Part shown: piece by piece, positions 6,426 to 58,176 of the stretch
How positions within the stretch are numbered: the first letter of the stretch is position 1
Layout of the letters: the number at the start of each line of letters is the position of its first letter
From: Candidatus Gottesmanbacteria bacterium
GTDB taxonomy: Bacteria; Patescibacteriota; Microgenomatia; 2-02-FULL-39-11
Length of the DNA stretch: 64,000 nt
Reading direction: 5' to 3'
Assembly (NCBI GenBank): GCA_016195685.1
Contig: JACPZE010000003.1
Span: forward strand, 899-64,898
Translations under genes and position numbers: made by a program
Notes under the pieces: generated by a model
The model's database searches: none
What the model saw: only the letters and a program-made list of their open reading frames with translations
What the model was told of the DNA's origin: nothing

Positions 6426-7970
6426 TTATAAGTTTCCCAATATGTACTCCAGAAGAGTTCTTACCCCAAAACCTACCCCTCCGATAGAAGAAAGAGGAGT
6501 ATCGCGTTCGGCGAAAGCAGGACCAGCTATATCCAGATGTACCCAAGGCGTATCCCCAACGAACTCAGCCAAAAATAAAGCGGCGGTAATGGCTCCACCG
6601 TATCTGCCTGTCTGGATGTTTTTGACGTCTGCAATGTGGCTCTTGATAAGGGATTTATAGTCGGAAAAAAGCGGCATGTTCCATACCCATTCGCCTACAT
6701 TTTCTCCTGATTTACTTATAGAATCTATAAGTTTGGTATTATTCCCCCACATACCGGCAATATCATCACCTAAAGCAACCATGCACGCACCCGTCAGTGT
6801 AGCTAAATCTATGATTTCATCAGGTTTCTCTTTCAAATTGGCATAAGATATGGCATCGGCTAAAGTAAGTCTTCCTTCAGCATCGGTATTGAGTACTTCA
6901 ATCGTCTTTCCGTTCATGGCTTTTAGTATGTCTCCGGGTTTTAATGCTTTTCCAGAAGGCATATTTTCACAAGCGGCTATAAGACCCACTACCTCAATAA
7001 TAGGATTTAAAAGTGTGATGGCATGAAATACTGCTAAAATTGCAGCTGCTCCGGCCATATCCAGTTTCATCGTTTCCATGTGCTCGGCTGACTTAAGAGA
7101 AAGTCCGCCGGTATCAAAAGTGATCCCTTTACCTATTAACACTATTTTTTTCGACGATCCGGCAGGTTTATACGATAAATGGATAAATTTTGGCGGTTTA
7201 TCACTGCCCGATGCTACCCCCAGAAATGAATTCATTCCTAATTTGGCTATTTCATCCTTGTCCATAATTTTTACTTTCACGGTGTTTTTACTTTCCTTTG
7301 CAATATTTAAAGCAACATCAGCTAAATAACTAGGTGAGGTAATTTCAGGAGGTTCATTTATAAGATCACGGGCGAAAACAGTTGAATTGGAAAATATTTC
7401 ACCCTTCCGCATTCCTTCTTCACCCAAAGTTAATTTGGGTGCGGAAAGAGATAATAGGACTTCTTCGATAGGGCGATTATTTTTCTGTTCCTCCTCACCT
7501 TTGTATTTGATAAATTTATATGAGGAAAGATTAACTGCCTCTACAACGGATTGAATGACTCTTTCCACCGGATATTTTTTCATCCAATAATCATCTACTA
7601 TTAAGGCTATTTTGGCCGGTTTAGTATCTATAACGCGTTTGATGGAAGTTGCAATCAATTTGTATAGTTTGTAGATATCAAATTCCTCTTTTTTACCTAT
7701 CCCAAACAAAAAAAACTTATACGCTGCTAAATCACCTTTGGGATAAACAAACAGTGTTTGACTCTCTTTCCCTTTGAATTCTTCCTTTTCGGCAAGAGTT
7801 TTTAATTCATCTAAAAAAGCCTTGGGGAGCGACGCGACATTTGAAAATTCTCCTTCCCAACAGTATTTTATAAGCACATCGACTTCTAGTTTTTCTGGAT
7901 TTGTAGGTTTGAGAAGAAATTTCATTTGTTTGACTAATACGAGTGTACAAAATATAATGATTGGAGTCAA
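6426..7970 (-). CDS. pepA: leucyl aminopeptidase, peptidase M17
   Basis: M17 signature NTDAEGRLTLADA and metal-binding region around VGKGITFDTGG. Confidence 0.85.
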   Translation of the reverse strand: MTPIIIFCTLVLVKQMKFLLKPTNPEKLEVDVLIKYCWEGEFSNVASLPKAFLDELKTLAEKEEFKGKESQTLFVYPKGDLAAYKFFLFGIGKKEEFDIYKLYKLIATSIKRVIDTKPAKIALIVDDYWMKKYPVERVIQSVVEAVNLSSYKFIKYKGEEEQKNNRPIEEVLLSLSAPKLTLGEEGMRKGEIFSNSTVFARDLINEPPEITSPSYLADVALNIAKESKNTVKVKIMDKDEIAKLGMNSFLGVASGSDKPPKFIHLSYKPAGSSKKIVLIGKGITFDTGGLSLKSAEHMETMKLDMAGAAAILAVFHAITLLNPIIEVVGLIAACENMPSGKALKPGDILKAMNGKTIEVLNTDAEGRLTLADAISYANLKEKPDEIIDLATLTGACMVALGDDIAGMWGNNTKLIDSISKSGENVGEWVWNMPLFSDYKSLIKSHIADVKNIQTGRYGGAITAALFLAEFVGDTPWVHLDIAGPAFAERDTPLSSIGGVGFGVRTLLEYILGNL

Positions 7971-7983
7971 TTAGACGATCAAT

Positions 7984-8068
7984 GCCGAGGTGGCGGAATG
8001 GCAGACGCGCAGGTCTCAAAAACCTGTGGGCCTCAAAGCCCATGAGGGTTCGACTCCCTCCCTCGGCA
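7984..8068 (+). tRNA. tRNA-Leu (anticodon CAA) with long variable arm
   Basis: GCCGAGGTGGCGGAATGGCAGACGCG; anticodon stem-loop caggt-CTCAAAA-acctg; long extra arm; GGTTCGACTCC T-arm; acceptor 3' strand cctcggc then discriminator A. Confidence 0.9.
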
Positions 8069-8141
8069 CATATAATTTATCACTAAATAAATTTAGGTCA
8101 TGAAATTTTTAGTATAGTATAATGAGTTTATTGATTAAAAA

Positions 8142-9566
8142 ATGTCTAAACAACAAGCAACAAAGACAAAAACCTATTTGTTCGTTGGAATTTCAATTCC
8201 TTTATTACTAATAATACTTGTTTACTTCTTAAACAAAACATACAATTATTCCTCTATAGTTCATTCAGAACCGGCAGTAAAACCAATCGAACCTGAACCT
8301 CATCAGGTTCTTGTCTGTCCTGAGAATGAAAAAGACAAACCCAATAACAATTGTAATTATTTCGGAGGAAATGGTCTTGCTAAAGCCATAAATGACGCGG
8401 ATAAAAACATTGATACCATAATCAAATTAAAACCTTCAGAATATACCAGACTAGAAAATTCGGAGACATTTACAGATAATGAAGGAATCAATCAGAAATG
8501 CTTCCTCTACTCGAAAGACAAAAATATCAAACTAGTTGGTCTTGAATCTGACGATCATACAAAACCAATTATCAACGGCCGAGGCATGGATAATCCTATG
8601 TCCGGTATTTGTATTGATGGAGGTCATTTTGAAATAAGCAACATAATACTAAAAGATTTTCTAAGATCTACTACGTTTTGCACAAAAGAGGACGTCGATT
8701 GCTCTGAAGGATCCGGAATTGCTATCTTGTCCTACAATTCAGAAATTACCATAAAATCAGTAATTCTGGGAACGGGAAATTTCAGTGCAATGAAATCTGA
8801 TAATTCTAACCTGGCAATTTCTGATTCAGATATTGCAGAAAACTCTGATGGAATATCACTGTATAATGGTTCCATAAAAGTTTCCGGCTCCAGATTTTAT
8901 AACAATCGCTTTTCAGCTGGATATTACGTTAACTCAGATGTAGTTTTCCAAAATAATATATTTTTTGAAAATGGACCAAAAGGAGGAATGAACCTTTATA
9001 ATTCTAACAAAACTCCTAACTATACCATCATTAATAATACTTTTTATAAGAATACATATGCCAATTTGAATATAGAAATCGGTTATGGCAGCGATTCTCC
9101 ATTCATGAAAATAACCAATAATATTTTCACAGATGCACAAGTCTATTTTGGTTCGCTAGGAAGCTGGGGTGAAGGTATTCACTTGGAAGATTACGATAAT
9201 TATCTAGCCAAAAAACCCGAGAATTTCGATATAGGTTTCAACCTTTTTTGGAAAAATGGCAATACACCGGAAAAGTATTGTGCAAATAACTATTTATTAT
9301 GTAACATGAAAGGATCAATTATTGGCAAAGATCCCTTATTTAATAATCCAAATGAAAAAGATTTCCGATTGAAAACCGGTTCTCCAGCCATAAATGCCGG
9401 AGCAAATGGCTTAACGATTGGAGCTATTGAGCAAACTGTAGATACTACAAGTGAGGATAAAAAACCGGCTATTCCGAATGATCAACCTGTTCCTGAAACT
9501 GATACTCCAGTAGAAGCATCATCACCCACTGAAACACCATCTCCAGACTCAACTTATAATCCGTAA
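8142..9566 (+). CDS. secreted/membrane-anchored right-handed beta-helix (pectin-lyase-fold-like) repeat protein with Pro/Thr-rich C-terminus
   Basis: N-terminal TM/signal anchor; repeated Asn/Gly-rich beta-helix-like units (NNIFFENGPKGGMNLYNSN, NNTFYKNTYANLNIEIG); C-terminal PVPETDTPVEASSPTETPSPDSTYNP. Confidence 0.55.
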   Translation: MSKQQATKTKTYLFVGISIPLLLIILVYFLNKTYNYSSIVHSEPAVKPIEPEPHQVLVCPENEKDKPNNNCNYFGGNGLAKAINDADKNIDTIIKLKPSEYTRLENSETFTDNEGINQKCFLYSKDKNIKLVGLESDDHTKPIINGRGMDNPMSGICIDGGHFEISNIILKDFLRSTTFCTKEDVDCSEGSGIAILSYNSEITIKSVILGTGNFSAMKSDNSNLAISDSDIAENSDGISLYNGSIKVSGSRFYNNRFSAGYYVNSDVVFQNNIFFENGPKGGMNLYNSNKTPNYTIINNTFYKNTYANLNIEIGYGSDSPFMKITNNIFTDAQVYFGSLGSWGEGIHLEDYDNYLAKKPENFDIGFNLFWKNGNTPEKYCANNYLLCNMKGSIIGKDPLFNNPNEKDFRLKTGSPAINAGANGLTIGAIEQTVDTTSEDKKPAIPNDQPVPETDTPVEASSPTETPSPDSTYNP

Positions 9567-9699
9567 ATTCCGGTTCCTAACTTTGATAAATCTTTTATAT
9601 TAAATATATTAATAGCTATATCATTCCGAAATTTCAAGAATAAATTTATCCATAGCCCAACTCCCTCCCTCGGCATCAAAATATTATTTTAAATAATTT

Positions 9700-10617
9700 T
9701 TATCTTATTCGCACTGGAGGTGTTCGTGTAGGAACAATATAAATTGGGGTAGGAAATTCTTGTCGCATTCTTTCATCACCAACAAATTTTGCATATTGCA
9801 TTAAATCGTAATAAGCGTCTTTCGTCAGATGTGATAGATCAAATTTATCTCTATATCTTAATAAAATTTTTGTTGGGTCAACAAACACAACAAACTTGTT
9901 ACGTGCATAATGATCTTGTAACACTTTTACTAAGCGGCGTTGCCGATCTTCCATCAATTTTCTAAACCCAACGTCCTCAGAATTTGAAGGGTATGGCAAT
10001 ATATATTCTATTAATACCCCTTTATAGTACAGATCATTCAGCAAAAAATCTATCAATTTAAAGTAATCCGCTGCAATACTGGTTTTATTTTCATCGCCTG
10101 GATTGGGTATCACTTCAATCCTTTCTTTAGCTGGATTCATGTTGGCCAATTTTTTATCTACTCCAAATATTAATCTTAATCTTTGGGGTTTTTCAGGATA
10201 AAATGACGGTACCAAACCATTTTCAAATTCTTCTCTTGCAAAATCAACATCCATATCAGGGAATCCTATTTCAAAGCATATTCCATCAGGAGAATAAATT
10301 AGCTTACAACCGTTCTCAGTCAGAACTTCAGAAGAAATAAATTCCTCAGAAGAAGTACCTACGCCCATTTGCAAATTTTTGAGGTTTGGTCTTAATATTT
10401 CGGTCGGGGTTGGCAACACTGTTGCAGTAGGATAAATTAATGTCCTTGTTGGTAATGGTGGAGGGATCAGATTTTTATTTACCGGAGTTATAGTGGGCGT
10501 TCTATCTTGAGAAGCAATCGTTTGTGTAGGAAATATGTTTGCACTTCTTGCACATCCCATTAAGGCGAAGGCTATGCCAATTTCGCTCCCAATCTCCAAC
10601 CCCCTACGCCATGACAT
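9700..10617 (-). CDS. hypothetical lipoprotein
   Basis: signal peptide with lipobox-like LMGCARS; Pro/Thr-rich linker; no recognisable domain. Confidence 0.45.
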   Translation of the reverse strand: MSWRRGLEIGSEIGIAFALMGCARSANIFPTQTIASQDRTPTITPVNKNLIPPPLPTRTLIYPTATVLPTPTEILRPNLKNLQMGVGTSSEEFISSEVLTENGCKLIYSPDGICFEIGFPDMDVDFAREEFENGLVPSFYPEKPQRLRLIFGVDKKLANMNPAKERIEVIPNPGDENKTSIAADYFKLIDFLLNDLYYKGVLIEYILPYPSNSEDVGFRKLMEDRQRRLVKVLQDHYARNKFVVFVDPTKILLRYRDKFDLSHLTKDAYYDLMQYAKFVGDERMRQEFPTPIYIVPTRTPPVRIR

Positions 10618-10622
10618 AAACT

Positions 10623-11951
10623 TTACCCTTCTTTTTTCTCTACCCCGTAGAATTTTATTCTGTCACCCTTAAAGACTAAGTCCACTTCTCCAGTAGGACC
10701 ATTTCTGTGTTTTGCTATAAGAAATTTCACTATCTGATGCTCCCATTTTTCAGTCGTATCCTGGTCTTCCCGGTATAAAAACACCACTACATCGGCGTCC
10801 TGTTCTATAGAGCCTGATTCTCGAAGATCGGCAAGCTGAGGTATTTTGGTACCCCTAGACTCAACGGCCCTGGATAATTGGGATACACAAAGGACCGGAA
10901 TTTTTAGTTCACGGGCGAGATTTTTCAATGATTGGGAAATTATAGACACTTCTTGTACACGATTATCATATCGCCTACCCGGATCAATCAATTGCAGATA
11001 ATCAACAATCAATAATTTCATCTGTTGATTCACCATAAGTCTTCTTGCTTTGGTACGCATCTCAAAAAGATTAATGCCAGGTGTATCATCTATAAAAAGT
11101 GGCGCATCTGCCAACTCTCCCATTGCTTCCGAAAGCCTCGTAAAATCATCATCTGAAAGTCTACCGGTCTTTAACCTCCAAGCATCCACATCTGCTTGTG
11201 AAACTAATAGCCTGTCAACCAATTCCTCTTTGCTCATCTCAAGAGAAAAAATTCCTACTGTCTGTTTTTGCGATACTGCTACATATTGGGCAATATTTAA
11301 TACTAAAGCTGTTTTGCCTTGTCCGGGTCTTGCGGCAAGAATTAAAAGATTAGAATCCTGCATTCCGGATAACCTGCGATCTACATCTGCAAATCCTGTA
11401 GATACTCCCCGAAGGCCTGATCCTTTCTTGTGAAGTTCATCAAGCCTGTCAAAACTTTCAGCAAGCGCATCTTTTATGGGTATAAAATCCTTGTGACTTC
11501 GAAGCTGGGAAATAGCTAAAATTTCACTTTCTGCCTTATCCAATATATCCTTAACGTCTTTTTTCTCAGAAAAAGCTTCCTGACTGACAGTAGCTGAAAC
11601 ATCTATAAGTCTTCTTTTTGTAAAATGGTCTGCTACAATTTTTCCATAAGTTTCTATGTTGGCTGATGTAGGAACCATGTTAGTTAAGTCACTTAGATAT
11701 GTTGATCCCCCCACATCCTTGTATTTCCCCATTTTTTTAAGTTCCGCAGTTACTGTAACTATGTCTACCGGTTCGTGTTTTTCAAAAAGAGCCATCATGG
11801 CAGAGAAAATATGGCTATGGGCTTCTTTGTAAAAATATTCCGGACGAAGAAAATCTATAACATCAGACAATGCATCCTTGTCTATAAGGATCGCACCTAG
11901 GACAGAAGATTCTGCTTGTTCATCATGGGGAGAGATACGGGCTTCGGACAT
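10623..11951 (-). CDS. dnaB: replicative DNA helicase
   Basis: Walker A ARPGQGKTALVLN; DnaB N-terminal domain and RecA-like C-terminal domain; no intein. Confidence 0.9.
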   Translation of the reverse strand: MSEARISPHDEQAESSVLGAILIDKDALSDVIDFLRPEYFYKEAHSHIFSAMMALFEKHEPVDIVTVTAELKKMGKYKDVGGSTYLSDLTNMVPTSANIETYGKIVADHFTKRRLIDVSATVSQEAFSEKKDVKDILDKAESEILAISQLRSHKDFIPIKDALAESFDRLDELHKKGSGLRGVSTGFADVDRRLSGMQDSNLLILAARPGQGKTALVLNIAQYVAVSQKQTVGIFSLEMSKEELVDRLLVSQADVDAWRLKTGRLSDDDFTRLSEAMGELADAPLFIDDTPGINLFEMRTKARRLMVNQQMKLLIVDYLQLIDPGRRYDNRVQEVSIISQSLKNLARELKIPVLCVSQLSRAVESRGTKIPQLADLRESGSIEQDADVVVFLYREDQDTTEKWEHQIVKFLIAKHRNGPTGEVDLVFKGDRIKFYGVEKKEG

Positions 11952-55902: not shown

Positions 55903-56262
55903 ATGAATTTTTTAATTGACACCTCTATACTTATAGAAATGCTTAGGAAAAATAAAGATGTTTTGGATTTTCTAGCTAATCATCTGGAAGATAGGTTTCT
56001 CACAAGCAGTATATGTGAGGCAGAAATTTGGGAAGGAGTTTATAGAGAAAAACCGATTAATTTTGTAAAAAGAAAGAAAAATGTTGAAGTTTTATTGGAA
56101 TCCCTGACAGGGACCATTACTTTTGATTCAAATCAGGCACAGATTGCAGGACAAATAAGATCTTCCCTTTCCTTAAAGGGAGAATTGACGGGTGACCTGG
56201 ATATTTTGATAGCCGCATCTGCTGTAACAAACGATGCAACCCTATATTTAATTTACCCATAA
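55903..56262 (+). CDS. VapC-type PIN-domain toxin (C-terminus looks truncated)
   Basis: MNFLIDTSILIE PIN N-terminus; immediately follows antitoxin; ends ...TNDATLYLIYP without the usual terminal acidic motif. Confidence 0.6.
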   Translation: MNFLIDTSILIEMLRKNKDVLDFLANHLEDRFLTSSICEAEIWEGVYREKPINFVKRKKNVEVLLESLTGTITFDSNQAQIAGQIRSSLSLKGELTGDLDILIAASAVTNDATLYLIYP

Positions 56263-56800: not shown

Positions 56801-57116
56801 GAATTTTGTTGTAAGTTCCGGTCCTAAATTGTGGGTATTTGCACTCACAACCAAAAACTGAAACTTACGACTTCGGAGCAAACGCTTCGAATAGCACTTT
56901 AACAAGGGAAATAGTGAAATTTATACCTCTAAATTATCTGGTTGTAGAGCTTCACATGGCAGAAAAATCTTTTCTACCAACTGTAGCTTTACAATCGGAT
57001 GAAAAAGGGTAAATAATGTTTGGTAAATATAGTTAATATTTAAGGATAGCGCTGTTGTTATAGAAAACATAATCTCAGTGACAGAAGATCTAAATCCGAC
57101 GTCACAAGAGGTTAAA

Positions 57117-58007
57117 ATGTTTAAAAGCAAAAGCACGCGGATCGCGGTAATTCTCGCGATCATCATGTTCGTCACGACTTTCGCTTTTACCGCGAACGTC
57201 GCAAGCGCACAGGGTCCCACACCTACGAAAAGCGTTGGTAGCAACAACGTTAATCAGGACTGTTTCGACTTGAAAAGTCCGTCTGGACCCCGAACAAAAC
57301 CTGGGGGGAAAGATAGCGCCGGGAACACCTGCGTCGCTGGCTTGCTCTGGACTGACCCCCAAGGCCGGTCGCTCAACGTCCCATACAACGGATACGCACT
57401 CAGTGCATCTAGCACAACGACGGGGACGATTACGCCAGGTGTGTCACTCACGAACACGGCTCCCTCCGACAATCTGGCAGCACCAACGGGTTCGACAAGA
57501 CCGAAGTATAATGTGTGCACGTTCAACGAGGACGGCACAAAGTATACGGTCGAACCAGATGCAGCCCCGGCAGTGGTCCACGCGCCTAACGGTACAATCG
57601 TTACTTTGGCGTGCACTTGGGATGATTCTCGCGGGGCAGTACCGGATCGGTCGGAAAAAACAGCGCTCGAAGTACAAATCGAAACCTGGCGGAGTGTCCT
57701 CTGGACAGGGATCACGATGATCCTCTCCGTTGTGTTTGCGATTGGCGCGCTGGTAGCAGCTGGGTTCATCGCGGTAGCGATGGTGCATGGCGACTTGTTC
57801 CGATCGGTGCGTGACTTCTGCTCTTCATGCACATCCCTTTGGTGGGGGTGGCGGCGGAGCACCCGGTGGTGGAGAACACGCTGCGAAAGAAAACCACTAG
57901 AAGCAGGCTCCTCAATGAGTCGACTTCGCTGTACGAAAGGTACCAGAACGAAAGATAAGGGGCCGCCGGGGAGTGGAGAAGCTGTTTTGTGGACCAACAC
58001 AAAATAA
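57117..58007 (+). CDS. GC-rich (foreign-composition) secreted protein with C-terminal TM anchor
   Basis: signal peptide MFKSKSTRIAVILAIIMFVTTFAFTANVASAQ; Thr/Ser/Pro-rich ectodomain with Cys; TM helix ITMILSVVFAIGALVAAGFIAVAMV; third-codon positions mostly G/C, unlike every other gene. Confidence 0.55.
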   Translation: MFKSKSTRIAVILAIIMFVTTFAFTANVASAQGPTPTKSVGSNNVNQDCFDLKSPSGPRTKPGGKDSAGNTCVAGLLWTDPQGRSLNVPYNGYALSASSTTTGTITPGVSLTNTAPSDNLAAPTGSTRPKYNVCTFNEDGTKYTVEPDAAPAVVHAPNGTIVTLACTWDDSRGAVPDRSEKTALEVQIETWRSVLWTGITMILSVVFAIGALVAAGFIAVAMVHGDLFRSVRDFCSSCTSLWWGWRRSTRWWRTRCERKPLEAGSSMSRLRCTKGTRTKDKGPPGSGEAVLWTNTK

Positions 58008-58176
58008 ATGCGGTTCACCGCAGCTTCCTCCGCCTTCGGCGCGACATCACAACCAAACATCATCACTATTTCCCTTATCTTTCAAATCTTCAGAATTCTG
58101 GAAGTTTGGGAGATAGGACAGAACAATTTCTAATTACTGATTTTTAATTTCTAATAAATTTAGATTGGAAATTGGG

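Follow-up and report, generated by a model that had tools for sequence, protein, structure and literature searches.

Islands integrated at transfer RNA (tRNA) genes are defined in Islander by a regenerated target gene together with a displaced fragment of that gene in direct orientation (Hudson, Lau & Williams 2015, PMC4383910). The class of islands whose attachment falls in the T-stem region comprises 1,836 of 3,919 islands, about half (PMC4383910), and integrases show preferences for certain sublocations within their targets: the anticodon loop, the T-loop and the asymmetric 3' end (10.1101/2020.11.02.365908). In E. coli, the tRNA-Leu gene leuX is a proven integrase target, at which integration restores a complete tRNA gene (PMC3202238). 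The present report concerns a similar arrangement in a stretch of 64,000 nucleotides from a Candidatus Gottesmanbacteria bacterium (contig JACPZE010000003.1, positions 899 to 64,898; the whole stretch is called the window below). Here the tRNA-Leu(CAA) gene at 7984-8068 is followed, 1.6 kb downstream, by a second copy of its last 16 nt, and a single open reading frame (ORF), ORF474, lies between the two copies. The leuX gene carries the CAA anticodon as well.

The host belongs to the Microgenomates and is an uncultivated groundwater bacterium; its assignment to Candidatus Gottesmanbacteria follows from NCBI names of identical proteins and from the best related contigs. Members of the Candidate Phyla Radiation (CPR), or Patescibacteria, have about 1 Mb of DNA with few recognisable mobile elements, and their lifestyle is thought to depend on surface proteins. 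With the possible mechanisms taken together, it is highly probable that ORF474 is an insertion beside the tRNA gene and that the second 16-mer is the displaced 3' end of that gene. The locus is best described as a degenerate, single-gene, tRNA-flanked islet.

A second copy of the tRNA-Leu(CAA) 3' end

The tRNA-Leu(CAA) gene is intact, lies on the forward strand and has no encoded CCA. It was located at 7984-8069 by ARAGORN and at 7984-8068 by the Rfam tRNA model (RF00005, 58.7 bits), is the only tRNA gene in the 64-kb window, and has a syntenic tRNA-Leu(CAA) counterpart in about 80 related loci. Its last 16 nt, ACTCCCTCCCTCGGCA, have two exact copies in the 64 kb, both on the forward strand: the left copy at 8053-8068 lies inside the tRNA and resembles an attL attachment site, and the right copy at 9660-9675, an attR-like and presumably displaced tRNA 3' end, lies in the spacer between ORF474 and the next gene, ORF305 (9700-10617, reverse strand). 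No third copy was found in the 64 kb when up to 2 mismatches were allowed. The block runs from T-loop position 58 to the discriminator A at position 73. It takes in the final 3 T-loop nt and the 3' strands of both T-stem and acceptor stem, and therefore ends exactly at the tRNA end. The edges of the repeat are sharp, with g8052 against a9659 before the block and c8069 against t9676 after it, and 3 of the 7 T-loop bases are common to both copies. An exact 3'-end repeat at these positions had been reported in the initial annotation and is confirmed. Two independent Logan assemblies from different sequencing runs, SRR12113415 (7334-9980) and SRR12113409 (7743-9914), are exact substrings of the window and each spans both copies, and the layout is therefore not a binning or assembly artefact.

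A chance repeat without biological meaning has only the small size of the block in its favor and is effectively refuted by shuffling. The expectation from dinucleotide-preserving shuffles, with 2 mismatches allowed, is 0.01 matches, and none of 100 shuffles reaches two; likewise, the best ungapped match of the 3' 45 nt of the tRNA in the region scores 16, which is equalled in none of 100 shuffles. The block is also G+C-rich in surrounding DNA of 35% G+C and stands in exact register with the tRNA end. A match of 16 in 16 positions with sharp edges would fit a recombination joint better than a decaying pseudogene.

It is very improbable that the second copy was kept for a function rather than left as a scar of insertion. 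As a functional element it might signal processing or termination, share a protein-binding site with the tRNA gene, or provide a small ORF with a Shine-Dalgarno-like complement, GGGAGGGAG on the reverse strand. The copy shows perfect conservation despite its position in a non-coding spacer, and on the reverse strand (window 9630-9675) it can be read as the Shine-Dalgarno-like GAGGGAGGGAGT, followed 7 nt on by the ATG of a 10-codon ORF (MDKFILEISE); the motif is probably fortuitous, since any copy of a tRNA-Leu arm yields such a motif. Against a function, there is one extra copy only in the 64 kb, no comparable distal element is conserved in any of about 100 related loci, and the convergent ORF474/ORF305 spacer of 133 nt contains neither a stable local structure (z = +1.04) nor a terminator-like site. 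Moreover, the limits of the block coincide with the tRNA end, which is predicted by a scar and not by a signal.

A putative sigma-70-like promoter, TTGACT-17-TATAAT, with 11 of 12 consensus positions, is located at 7930-7958 on the forward strand, 26 nt upstream of the tRNA gene. A TTGACT..TATAAT..GAGTCAA block also precedes the tRNA locus in three relatives (L004, L012, L084). ORF474 may be transcribed from this tRNA promoter, because it is co-oriented with the tRNA and no terminator-like site was found between the two; the promoter-like site could then also drive ORF474 by read-through.

Empty sites in related loci

Loci for comparison were fetched around pepA homologues in GTDB species representatives (80 loci), around dnaB homologues in metagenomes (80 loci) and from the closest pepA homologues (5 loci), and they span genus-to-family distances, with 40-73% identity in pepA. 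The conserved left flank in the window is pepA (leucyl aminopeptidase, Pfam Peptidase_M17; 6426-7925, reverse strand), divergent from the tRNA; the pepA start was set at 7925 after the L001 gene call and alignments of homologues. The conserved right flank, identified by Pfam DnaB/DnaB_C and by synteny, is dnaB (10623-11951, reverse strand). The order dnaB / tRNA-Leu(CAA) / pepA is kept in about 100 related loci. The longer order ORF261 / metallo-beta-lactamase-fold gene / dnaB / tRNA-Leu(CAA) / pepA / major facilitator superfamily (MFS) transporter / lgt is conserved across Gottesmanbacteria, and the linkage of dnaB to tRNA-Leu extends more widely.

The gap between the tRNA 3' end and the dnaB stop was compared for loci in which the tRNA converges on dnaB as in the window. 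It amounts to 8 nt in L085, 9 nt in L177, 11 nt in L083, 32 nt in L014, 34 nt in L013 and 48 nt in L018, and these loci, with gaps of 8-50 nt, are empty target sites; the initial annotation had proposed to look in relatives for just such an uninterrupted tRNA-Leu locus. The gap is 70 nt in L022, 113 nt in L005, 0.3-6.7 kb in other lineages and 2,553 nt in the window. The islet body, 1,591 nt at 8069-9659 on the forward strand, is absent from every related locus. When ORF474 and ORF305 were compared with all loci by tblastn, no match was obtained, for ORF474 none beyond the identical Logan contigs L001 and L002. The locus thus shows strong length polymorphism, and ORF474 is missing from the loci of all relatives; neither of the two refuting outcomes named in the initial annotation has come about. 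Because the gaps are short in relatives and both genes are absent from them, the compact tRNA-dnaB arrangement is likely to be ancestral, ORF474 and ORF305 having been gained in the lineage of the window.

The best identities to a relative in the GTDB and JGI scans are 64% for pepA and 80% for dnaB; a large protein search raised the best pepA identity to 73%, on a contig that ends inside the tRNA. Exact-protein look-ups returned no record for pepA and dnaB, and nothing but identical short contigs for ORF474. A comparison of the flanks downstream of the two repeat copies, to tell which of them is ancestral, gave no signal, the relatives being too divergent.

Among the closest pepA relatives (67-73%), the Logan contigs stop within tRNA-Leu or no more than about 60 nt away (L174:1-29, L176:1-146, L178:1-155). 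L174 breaks off within the tRNA, its terminal 29 nt matching the 5' end of the tRNA in the window exactly, and L176 stops 60 nt past the tRNA. These contig breaks at tRNA-Leu suggest strain-level heterogeneity at the locus. In the dnaB-tRNA gap of L004 (7278-7581), a 73-nt tandem repeat is present in 4.2 copies with 99% identity, the array starting at the dnaB 3' end, and a single related unit is found in the gap of L005.

The single gene of the islet

Between the repeat copies there is no ORF of 70 aa or more besides ORF474 (8142-9566, forward strand, 474 aa), in agreement with the initial annotation. This gene is flanked inside the islet by about 70 nt and about 90 nt of DNA, and the non-coding islet DNA, 166 nt in all, contains no recognisable debris. 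The protein begins with a basic N-terminus and a single hydrophobic helix (about residues 13-30), which lead into a body with many Asn/Gly/Ile repeats and a C-terminal tail that is Pro/Thr-rich, as had been noted earlier, and also acidic. The helix is probably a signal anchor, which would place the body outside the cytoplasm; the protein, first described as secreted, would then be extracytoplasmic while remaining attached to the membrane.

Pfam contains no family for ORF474 at E<=0.01 (weak matches are HAAS_TM at 0.047 and DUF5123 at E=4), PHROGs contains none, and at the 90% cluster level of a 5.8-billion-protein database the only match is the protein itself, under the NCBI name 'right-handed parallel beta-helix repeat-containing protein'. 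An exhaustive phmmer search of 1.8 billion cluster representatives identified 73 distant relatives at E<=1e-3 (best 2e-23), with at most 38% identity to the better-scoring ones. PF13229 (Beta_helix) is present in all 10 of the top relatives scanned, and NosD in most of them. A profile built from 13 sequences of the ORF474 family matches AlgE4 alginate C5-epimerase (2pyg, 4e-11) and 9rx2, a 'parallel beta-helix repeat protein' (4e-8), and in addition GH110, alpha-galactosidases and NosD. The beta-helix assignment of the initial annotation is therefore not given by Pfam directly but is reached through these relatives and solved enzymes: ORF474 is, judged by transitive homology, a membrane-anchored extracytoplasmic protein with a right-handed parallel beta-helix body. 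A single-sequence AlphaFold2 model, with a mean predicted local distance difference test (pLDDT) score of 38, has many short strands at residues 100-350, and its fold is uninterpretable. ORF474 possibly acts on or binds polysaccharide. A role as an adhesin or in host interaction, suggested earlier, is conjecture; among solved structures, the closest relatives are carbohydrate-active enzymes with a beta-helix. No paralogue of ORF474 or ORF305 exists in the window.

The G+C content of ORF474 is 0.343 and that of its third codon positions (GC3) 0.269, and its synonymous-codon likelihood lies within 1 standard deviation of the other 70 window ORFs. The one slightly raised measure is the tetranucleotide distance (97th percentile), a value to which an Asn-rich repeat protein can give rise. 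The codon and G+C analysis for which the initial annotation had called thus returned native values.

Insertion of a transposon, an insertion sequence or a miniature inverted-repeat transposable element was also considered and rejected: there are no terminal inverted repeats at 8069/9659, Pfam revealed no transposase in or beside the islet, and target-site duplications do not typically take the form of 16 nt in register with the end of a tRNA.

Partial tRNA-Leu copies in relatives

Fragments of tRNA-Leu were searched for in all loci using nhmmer with a profile of 74 distinct tRNA-Leu(CAA) genes, contig-end truncations and N-gaps being excluded. Partial copies beside the intact tRNA were found in L003, L004, L012, L021, L024, L025, L026, L084, L096 and L178. 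An Rfam scan of the window, L004, L012 and L084 reports the intact tRNAs only, the tRNA-like fragments being below threshold.

Nested or serial copies occur at L004:7600-8040 (reverse strand), L012:7690-8060, L084:11380-11760, L025:7640-7900, L178:1-155 and L003:7596-7678. In the nested loci a complete tRNA is bracketed, at a distance of 2-26 nt, by a 5' fragment and/or a 5'-truncated copy; the bracketing pieces clearly come from another allele in L004, L012 and L178, and no recombinase was found near the nested copies. In L004, a 21-nt 5' fragment and a 54-nt 3' part, which starts in the anticodon loop and reaches the 3' end, flank the complete tRNA, each 13 nt off. These pieces represent the allele of the window and the complete tRNA the other allele, and the acceptor strand of the fragment cannot pair with the 5' strand of the resident tRNA. 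In L012 and L084, a 5' fragment is followed by the complete tRNA and then by a 5'-truncated copy. The truncated copies (L012:7716-7818 and L084:11411-11518, both reverse strand) contain a near-perfect hairpin of 26-32 nt, GGACGT...ACGTCC, with a locus-specific inner stem, which interrupts the copy between the loop and the 5' strand of the anticodon stem; it has no match in Rfam, and its flanking sequence ACGTCCTCTCAAAAACCTGT is found in L012 and L084 only, among 173 loci.

A different layout is found at L024:2127-2191, L026:7926-7991 and L096:6740-6806 (forward strand), where a copy of the 3' two-thirds of tRNA-Leu with the conserved lead TGGCAGGCGGGTCAAAAACCTGT follows the intact tRNA. Here the tRNA is co-directional with dnaB and the spacer is 5-7 nt, counted after removal of the 2-3 trailing bases that ARAGORN adds, without cargo. 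L024 and L026 have identical intact tRNAs, and their fragments are identical save for a swapped, still base-paired variable arm. In all 7 aligned 3' fragments the variable-arm hairpin stays paired via compensatory changes, and the fragments therefore derive from once-functional alleles. Finally, 107 nt downstream of its tRNA, L021 has a 25-nt foreign-allele fragment spanning the T-arm through the 3' end, which looks like the layout of the window in miniature.

The fragments in relatives suggest that an entire tRNA gene was replaced and that remnants of its predecessor stayed in place. The window may accordingly be compared with an integrase-free event, in which short-homology or illegitimate recombination, such as homology-facilitated illegitimate recombination after DNA uptake or templated repair of a break in the tRNA gene, brought in a segment carrying a complete tRNA-Leu(CAA) followed by ORF474. 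The right joint would then lie inside the resident tRNA, the last 16 nt of which would be orphaned, and the working tRNA would be that of the donor. L004 shows exactly such a product, an allele-B tRNA between allele-A pieces, and similar 5'- or 3'-truncated copies lie 2-26 nt from the tRNA in L012, L084, L003, L024, L026, L096, L025 and L178. The foreign-allele fragment of L021, the paired variable arms of fragments that differ in sequence, the fragments of L024 and L026 that exist without cargo, and the absence of a recombinase from every fragment-bearing locus are all in line with this account, as are the native composition of ORF474, which fits a closely related donor, and the contig breaks at or in the tRNA in L174 and L176. 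The window itself fits less well. Its fragment is distal, 1.6 kb off rather than adjacent, is identical to the resident allele in 16 of 16 positions, and has a sharp T-loop edge; no 5' fragment or other partial tRNA copy is present in the window; and the conserved T-loop bases GGTTCG, the best candidate for a microhomology between alleles, fall just outside the retained block. We know of no demonstration of an integrase-free mechanism of this kind in these organisms, and on balance we regard it as somewhat unlikely for the window, yet as a serious rival to integrase-type integration.

A broader proposal, which we consider improbable, is that the tRNA-Leu(CAA) beside dnaB is repeatedly rewritten in Gottesmanbacteria and related Microgenomates by a process distinct from both classical integrase integration and transposition. 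Foreign alleles would be dropped, as whole tRNA-Leu copies, into or beside the resident gene, occasionally with a passenger gene, leaving nested 5' and 3' fragments 2-26 nt off, some with the conserved 26-32-nt hairpin before the anticodon loop, and the ORF474 islet would be one of the products.

Proposed mechanism of the insertion

Integration of the integrase type, followed by loss of the integration module or achieved by mobilisation in trans, is the best single reading of the locus and is held tentatively. The ORF474 islet (8069-9659) would be a single-gene insertion at the 3' end of the sole tRNA-Leu(CAA) gene. The incoming DNA would have borne a 16-nt copy of the tRNA end, and recombination in the block formed by the 3' strands of the T-stem and acceptor stem would have rebuilt an intact tRNA from the copy of the insert, moving the resident tRNA end 1.6 kb downstream, where it would survive at 9660-9675. 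The layout suggests site-specific recombination of the tyrosine-integrase type, with attL at 8053-8068 and attR at 9660-9675. The recombinase may have acted in trans, or may have been located on a larger element whose integration module was later deleted, and the outcome would be a fixed, non-mobile islet. The junctions predicted by this order of events are an empty site with ...GGTTCGACTCCCTCCCTCGGCA joined to TCAAAATATTATTTT and a circular islet with ...TTATCCATAGCCCAACTCCCTCCCTCGGCA joined to CATATAATTTATC. The extent of the block, from T-loop 58 to discriminator 73, is compatible with the T-stem-region or the 3'-end class, and conserved tRNA segments would bias integrase-free joints too. 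Such sublocation classes reportedly go back to Williams in 2002.

Several observations weigh against integrase-type integration. No tyrosine or serine recombinase was found in the islet or the adjoining genes, as the initial annotation had already stated for integrases, and neither ORF474 nor ORF305 has a recombinase match in Pfam (E<=10) or PHROGs (E<=1). Ten further window ORFs, checked singly, contain no recombinase; for another 61 window ORFs the matches listed cover 25 of 92 families, and no absence across the 64 kb is claimed. Nor was an integrase-type recombinase found amongst the 48 ORFs that fill the dnaB-tRNA gap in 23 relatives, in which the only mobile-element protein is an IS200-like Y1 transposase in L025. 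These gap ORFs encode toxin-antitoxin pairs (PIN and Phd genes in L006 and L009), a PaaX/Cas2-like protein, a methyltransferase, a nucleotidyltransferase, a carbamoyltransferase, a CNNM transporter, NUDIX, TrpR-like proteins, a radical-SAM enzyme, an Na+/H+ exchanger, Ig-domain proteins, a Mur ligase, FemAB, Maf and HAD. No phage or plasmid bearing the corresponding attP was found: the 16-mer occurs in 11 IMG/VR contigs, all unrelated and of 41-70% G+C. Two of these matches are tRNA-Leu(TAG) genes and eight are copies of a single phage coding sequence; the remaining one is a lone match in a contig of 70% G+C. ORF474 has no relatives in viral contigs, and its G+C content, GC3 and codon usage are native.

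Further points on the same side come from the tRNA itself and from the extent of the variable segment. Since so few T-loop bases are shared by the two copies, an integrase crossover cannot have been in the T-loop and would have to fall in the asymmetric 3' part. The fragments in relatives mostly come from other alleles and abut the intact tRNA, an outcome not predicted by simple integration between attL and attR. They start in the D-loop, the anticodon loop or the T-arm, sites that are favored by integrases but are also the best conserved in the tRNA, so that joints of short homology between divergent alleles would be expected there, and the argument from canonical sublocations is therefore weaker here. 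ORF305 lies outside the repeat and is as lineage-specific as ORF474, so that the repeat encloses just a portion of the variable segment, and a second tRNA fragment could not be detected at the dnaB border; part of the variable segment therefore came without a surviving scar. The classic att footprint of the initial annotation is accordingly upheld by the repeat, its register with the tRNA and the empty sites, and is put in doubt by ORF305 and by the foreign-allele fragments. The weights assigned to the mechanisms above leave a remainder for explanations outside those named.

Flanking genes and other features of the window

To the left of the tRNA, pepA is followed on the reverse strand by genes for an MFS transporter, lgt, a pseudouridine synthase and an Na+/H+ exchanger. 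To the right, ORF474 on the forward strand is succeeded by ORF305, dnaB and the metallo-beta-lactamase-fold gene, all on the reverse strand. The orphan gene ORF305, which is lipoprotein-like in having a lipobox (LMGC) and a linker rich in Pro and Thr, starts 5 nt from the dnaB stop. It has no family in Pfam or PHROGs and matches only itself at the 90% cluster level of the 5.8-billion-protein database. Two ideas concerning this gene were rejected. ORF305 is about as large as an integrase, but it is lipoprotein-like, an orphan and without a recombinase match; and an older attR at the ORF305/dnaB border, as expected for tandem islands, would correspond to a best gapped score of 13, which is reached by about 10% of random windows.

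Two other regions of the window deserve mention. A 0.9-kb segment at 57150-58050 has 56-59% G+C, compared with about 36-38% for the genome, and may be a recent foreign acquisition or a chimeric assembly. The ORF at 57078-58007 (forward strand) is the strongest codon-usage outlier of the window and possesses a signal peptide but no Pfam family; the region has no Rfam match. A PIN-domain toxin gene is found at 55903-56262 on the forward strand (Pfam 2.6e-8).

Significance

Insertion of DNA at a tRNA gene is an ordinary kind of event, seen here without a visible insertion enzyme and in an under-studied phylum. If the islet did arise by integrase-type integration, it is a clean and small case of gene gain at a tRNA gene in the CPR/Patescibacteria, and the gene gained is a fast-evolving extracytoplasmic beta-helix protein, of the surface-protein kind. 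The interval between dnaB and tRNA-Leu is a place to seek lineage-specific surface and accessory genes in this group, which is useful and unsurprising. The nested tRNA-Leu fragments from foreign alleles, without a recombinase nearby, are more unusual and hint at an undescribed replacement of a single-copy tRNA gene; should repeated rewriting of the tRNA gene be real, it would constitute a route of gene gain in genomes otherwise almost free of mobile elements.

Comparison with known systems

Islander islands and the islet in the window share an intact tRNA at one end, a displaced direct 3' fragment at the other that extends from the T-arm region to the exact tRNA end, and content that is absent from relatives. 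Islander requires an integrase, which the islet in the window lacks, and the islet is thus not a member; Islander islands are also multigene, whereas the islet comprises 1.6 kb and one gene, with no anomaly of G+C content or codon usage. The leuX islands with P4-like integrases, such as PAI II536 (PMC3202238), likewise have a tRNA-Leu target, a restored tRNA and flanking direct repeats. Unlike the islet, in which nothing mobile is left, PAI II536 was studied as a 107-kb construct with its own integrase and measurable excision, and its host is enterobacterial, unrelated to the patescibacterial lineage of the window. The islet resembles repeat-flanked remnants without a recombinase in that its cargo is presumably fixed in place; such remnants usually keep pseudogenes or phage debris, neither of which is recognisable in its 166 non-coding nt.

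At integration hotspots between core genes, accessory genes turn over without resident mobile-element genes. The dnaB-tRNA-Leu interval is similar to such hotspots, having unrelated cargo in each lineage and no recombinase. In a comparison that extends here from genus to family, rather than over strains of one species, the window is set apart from these hotspots by the precise duplication of its tRNA end.

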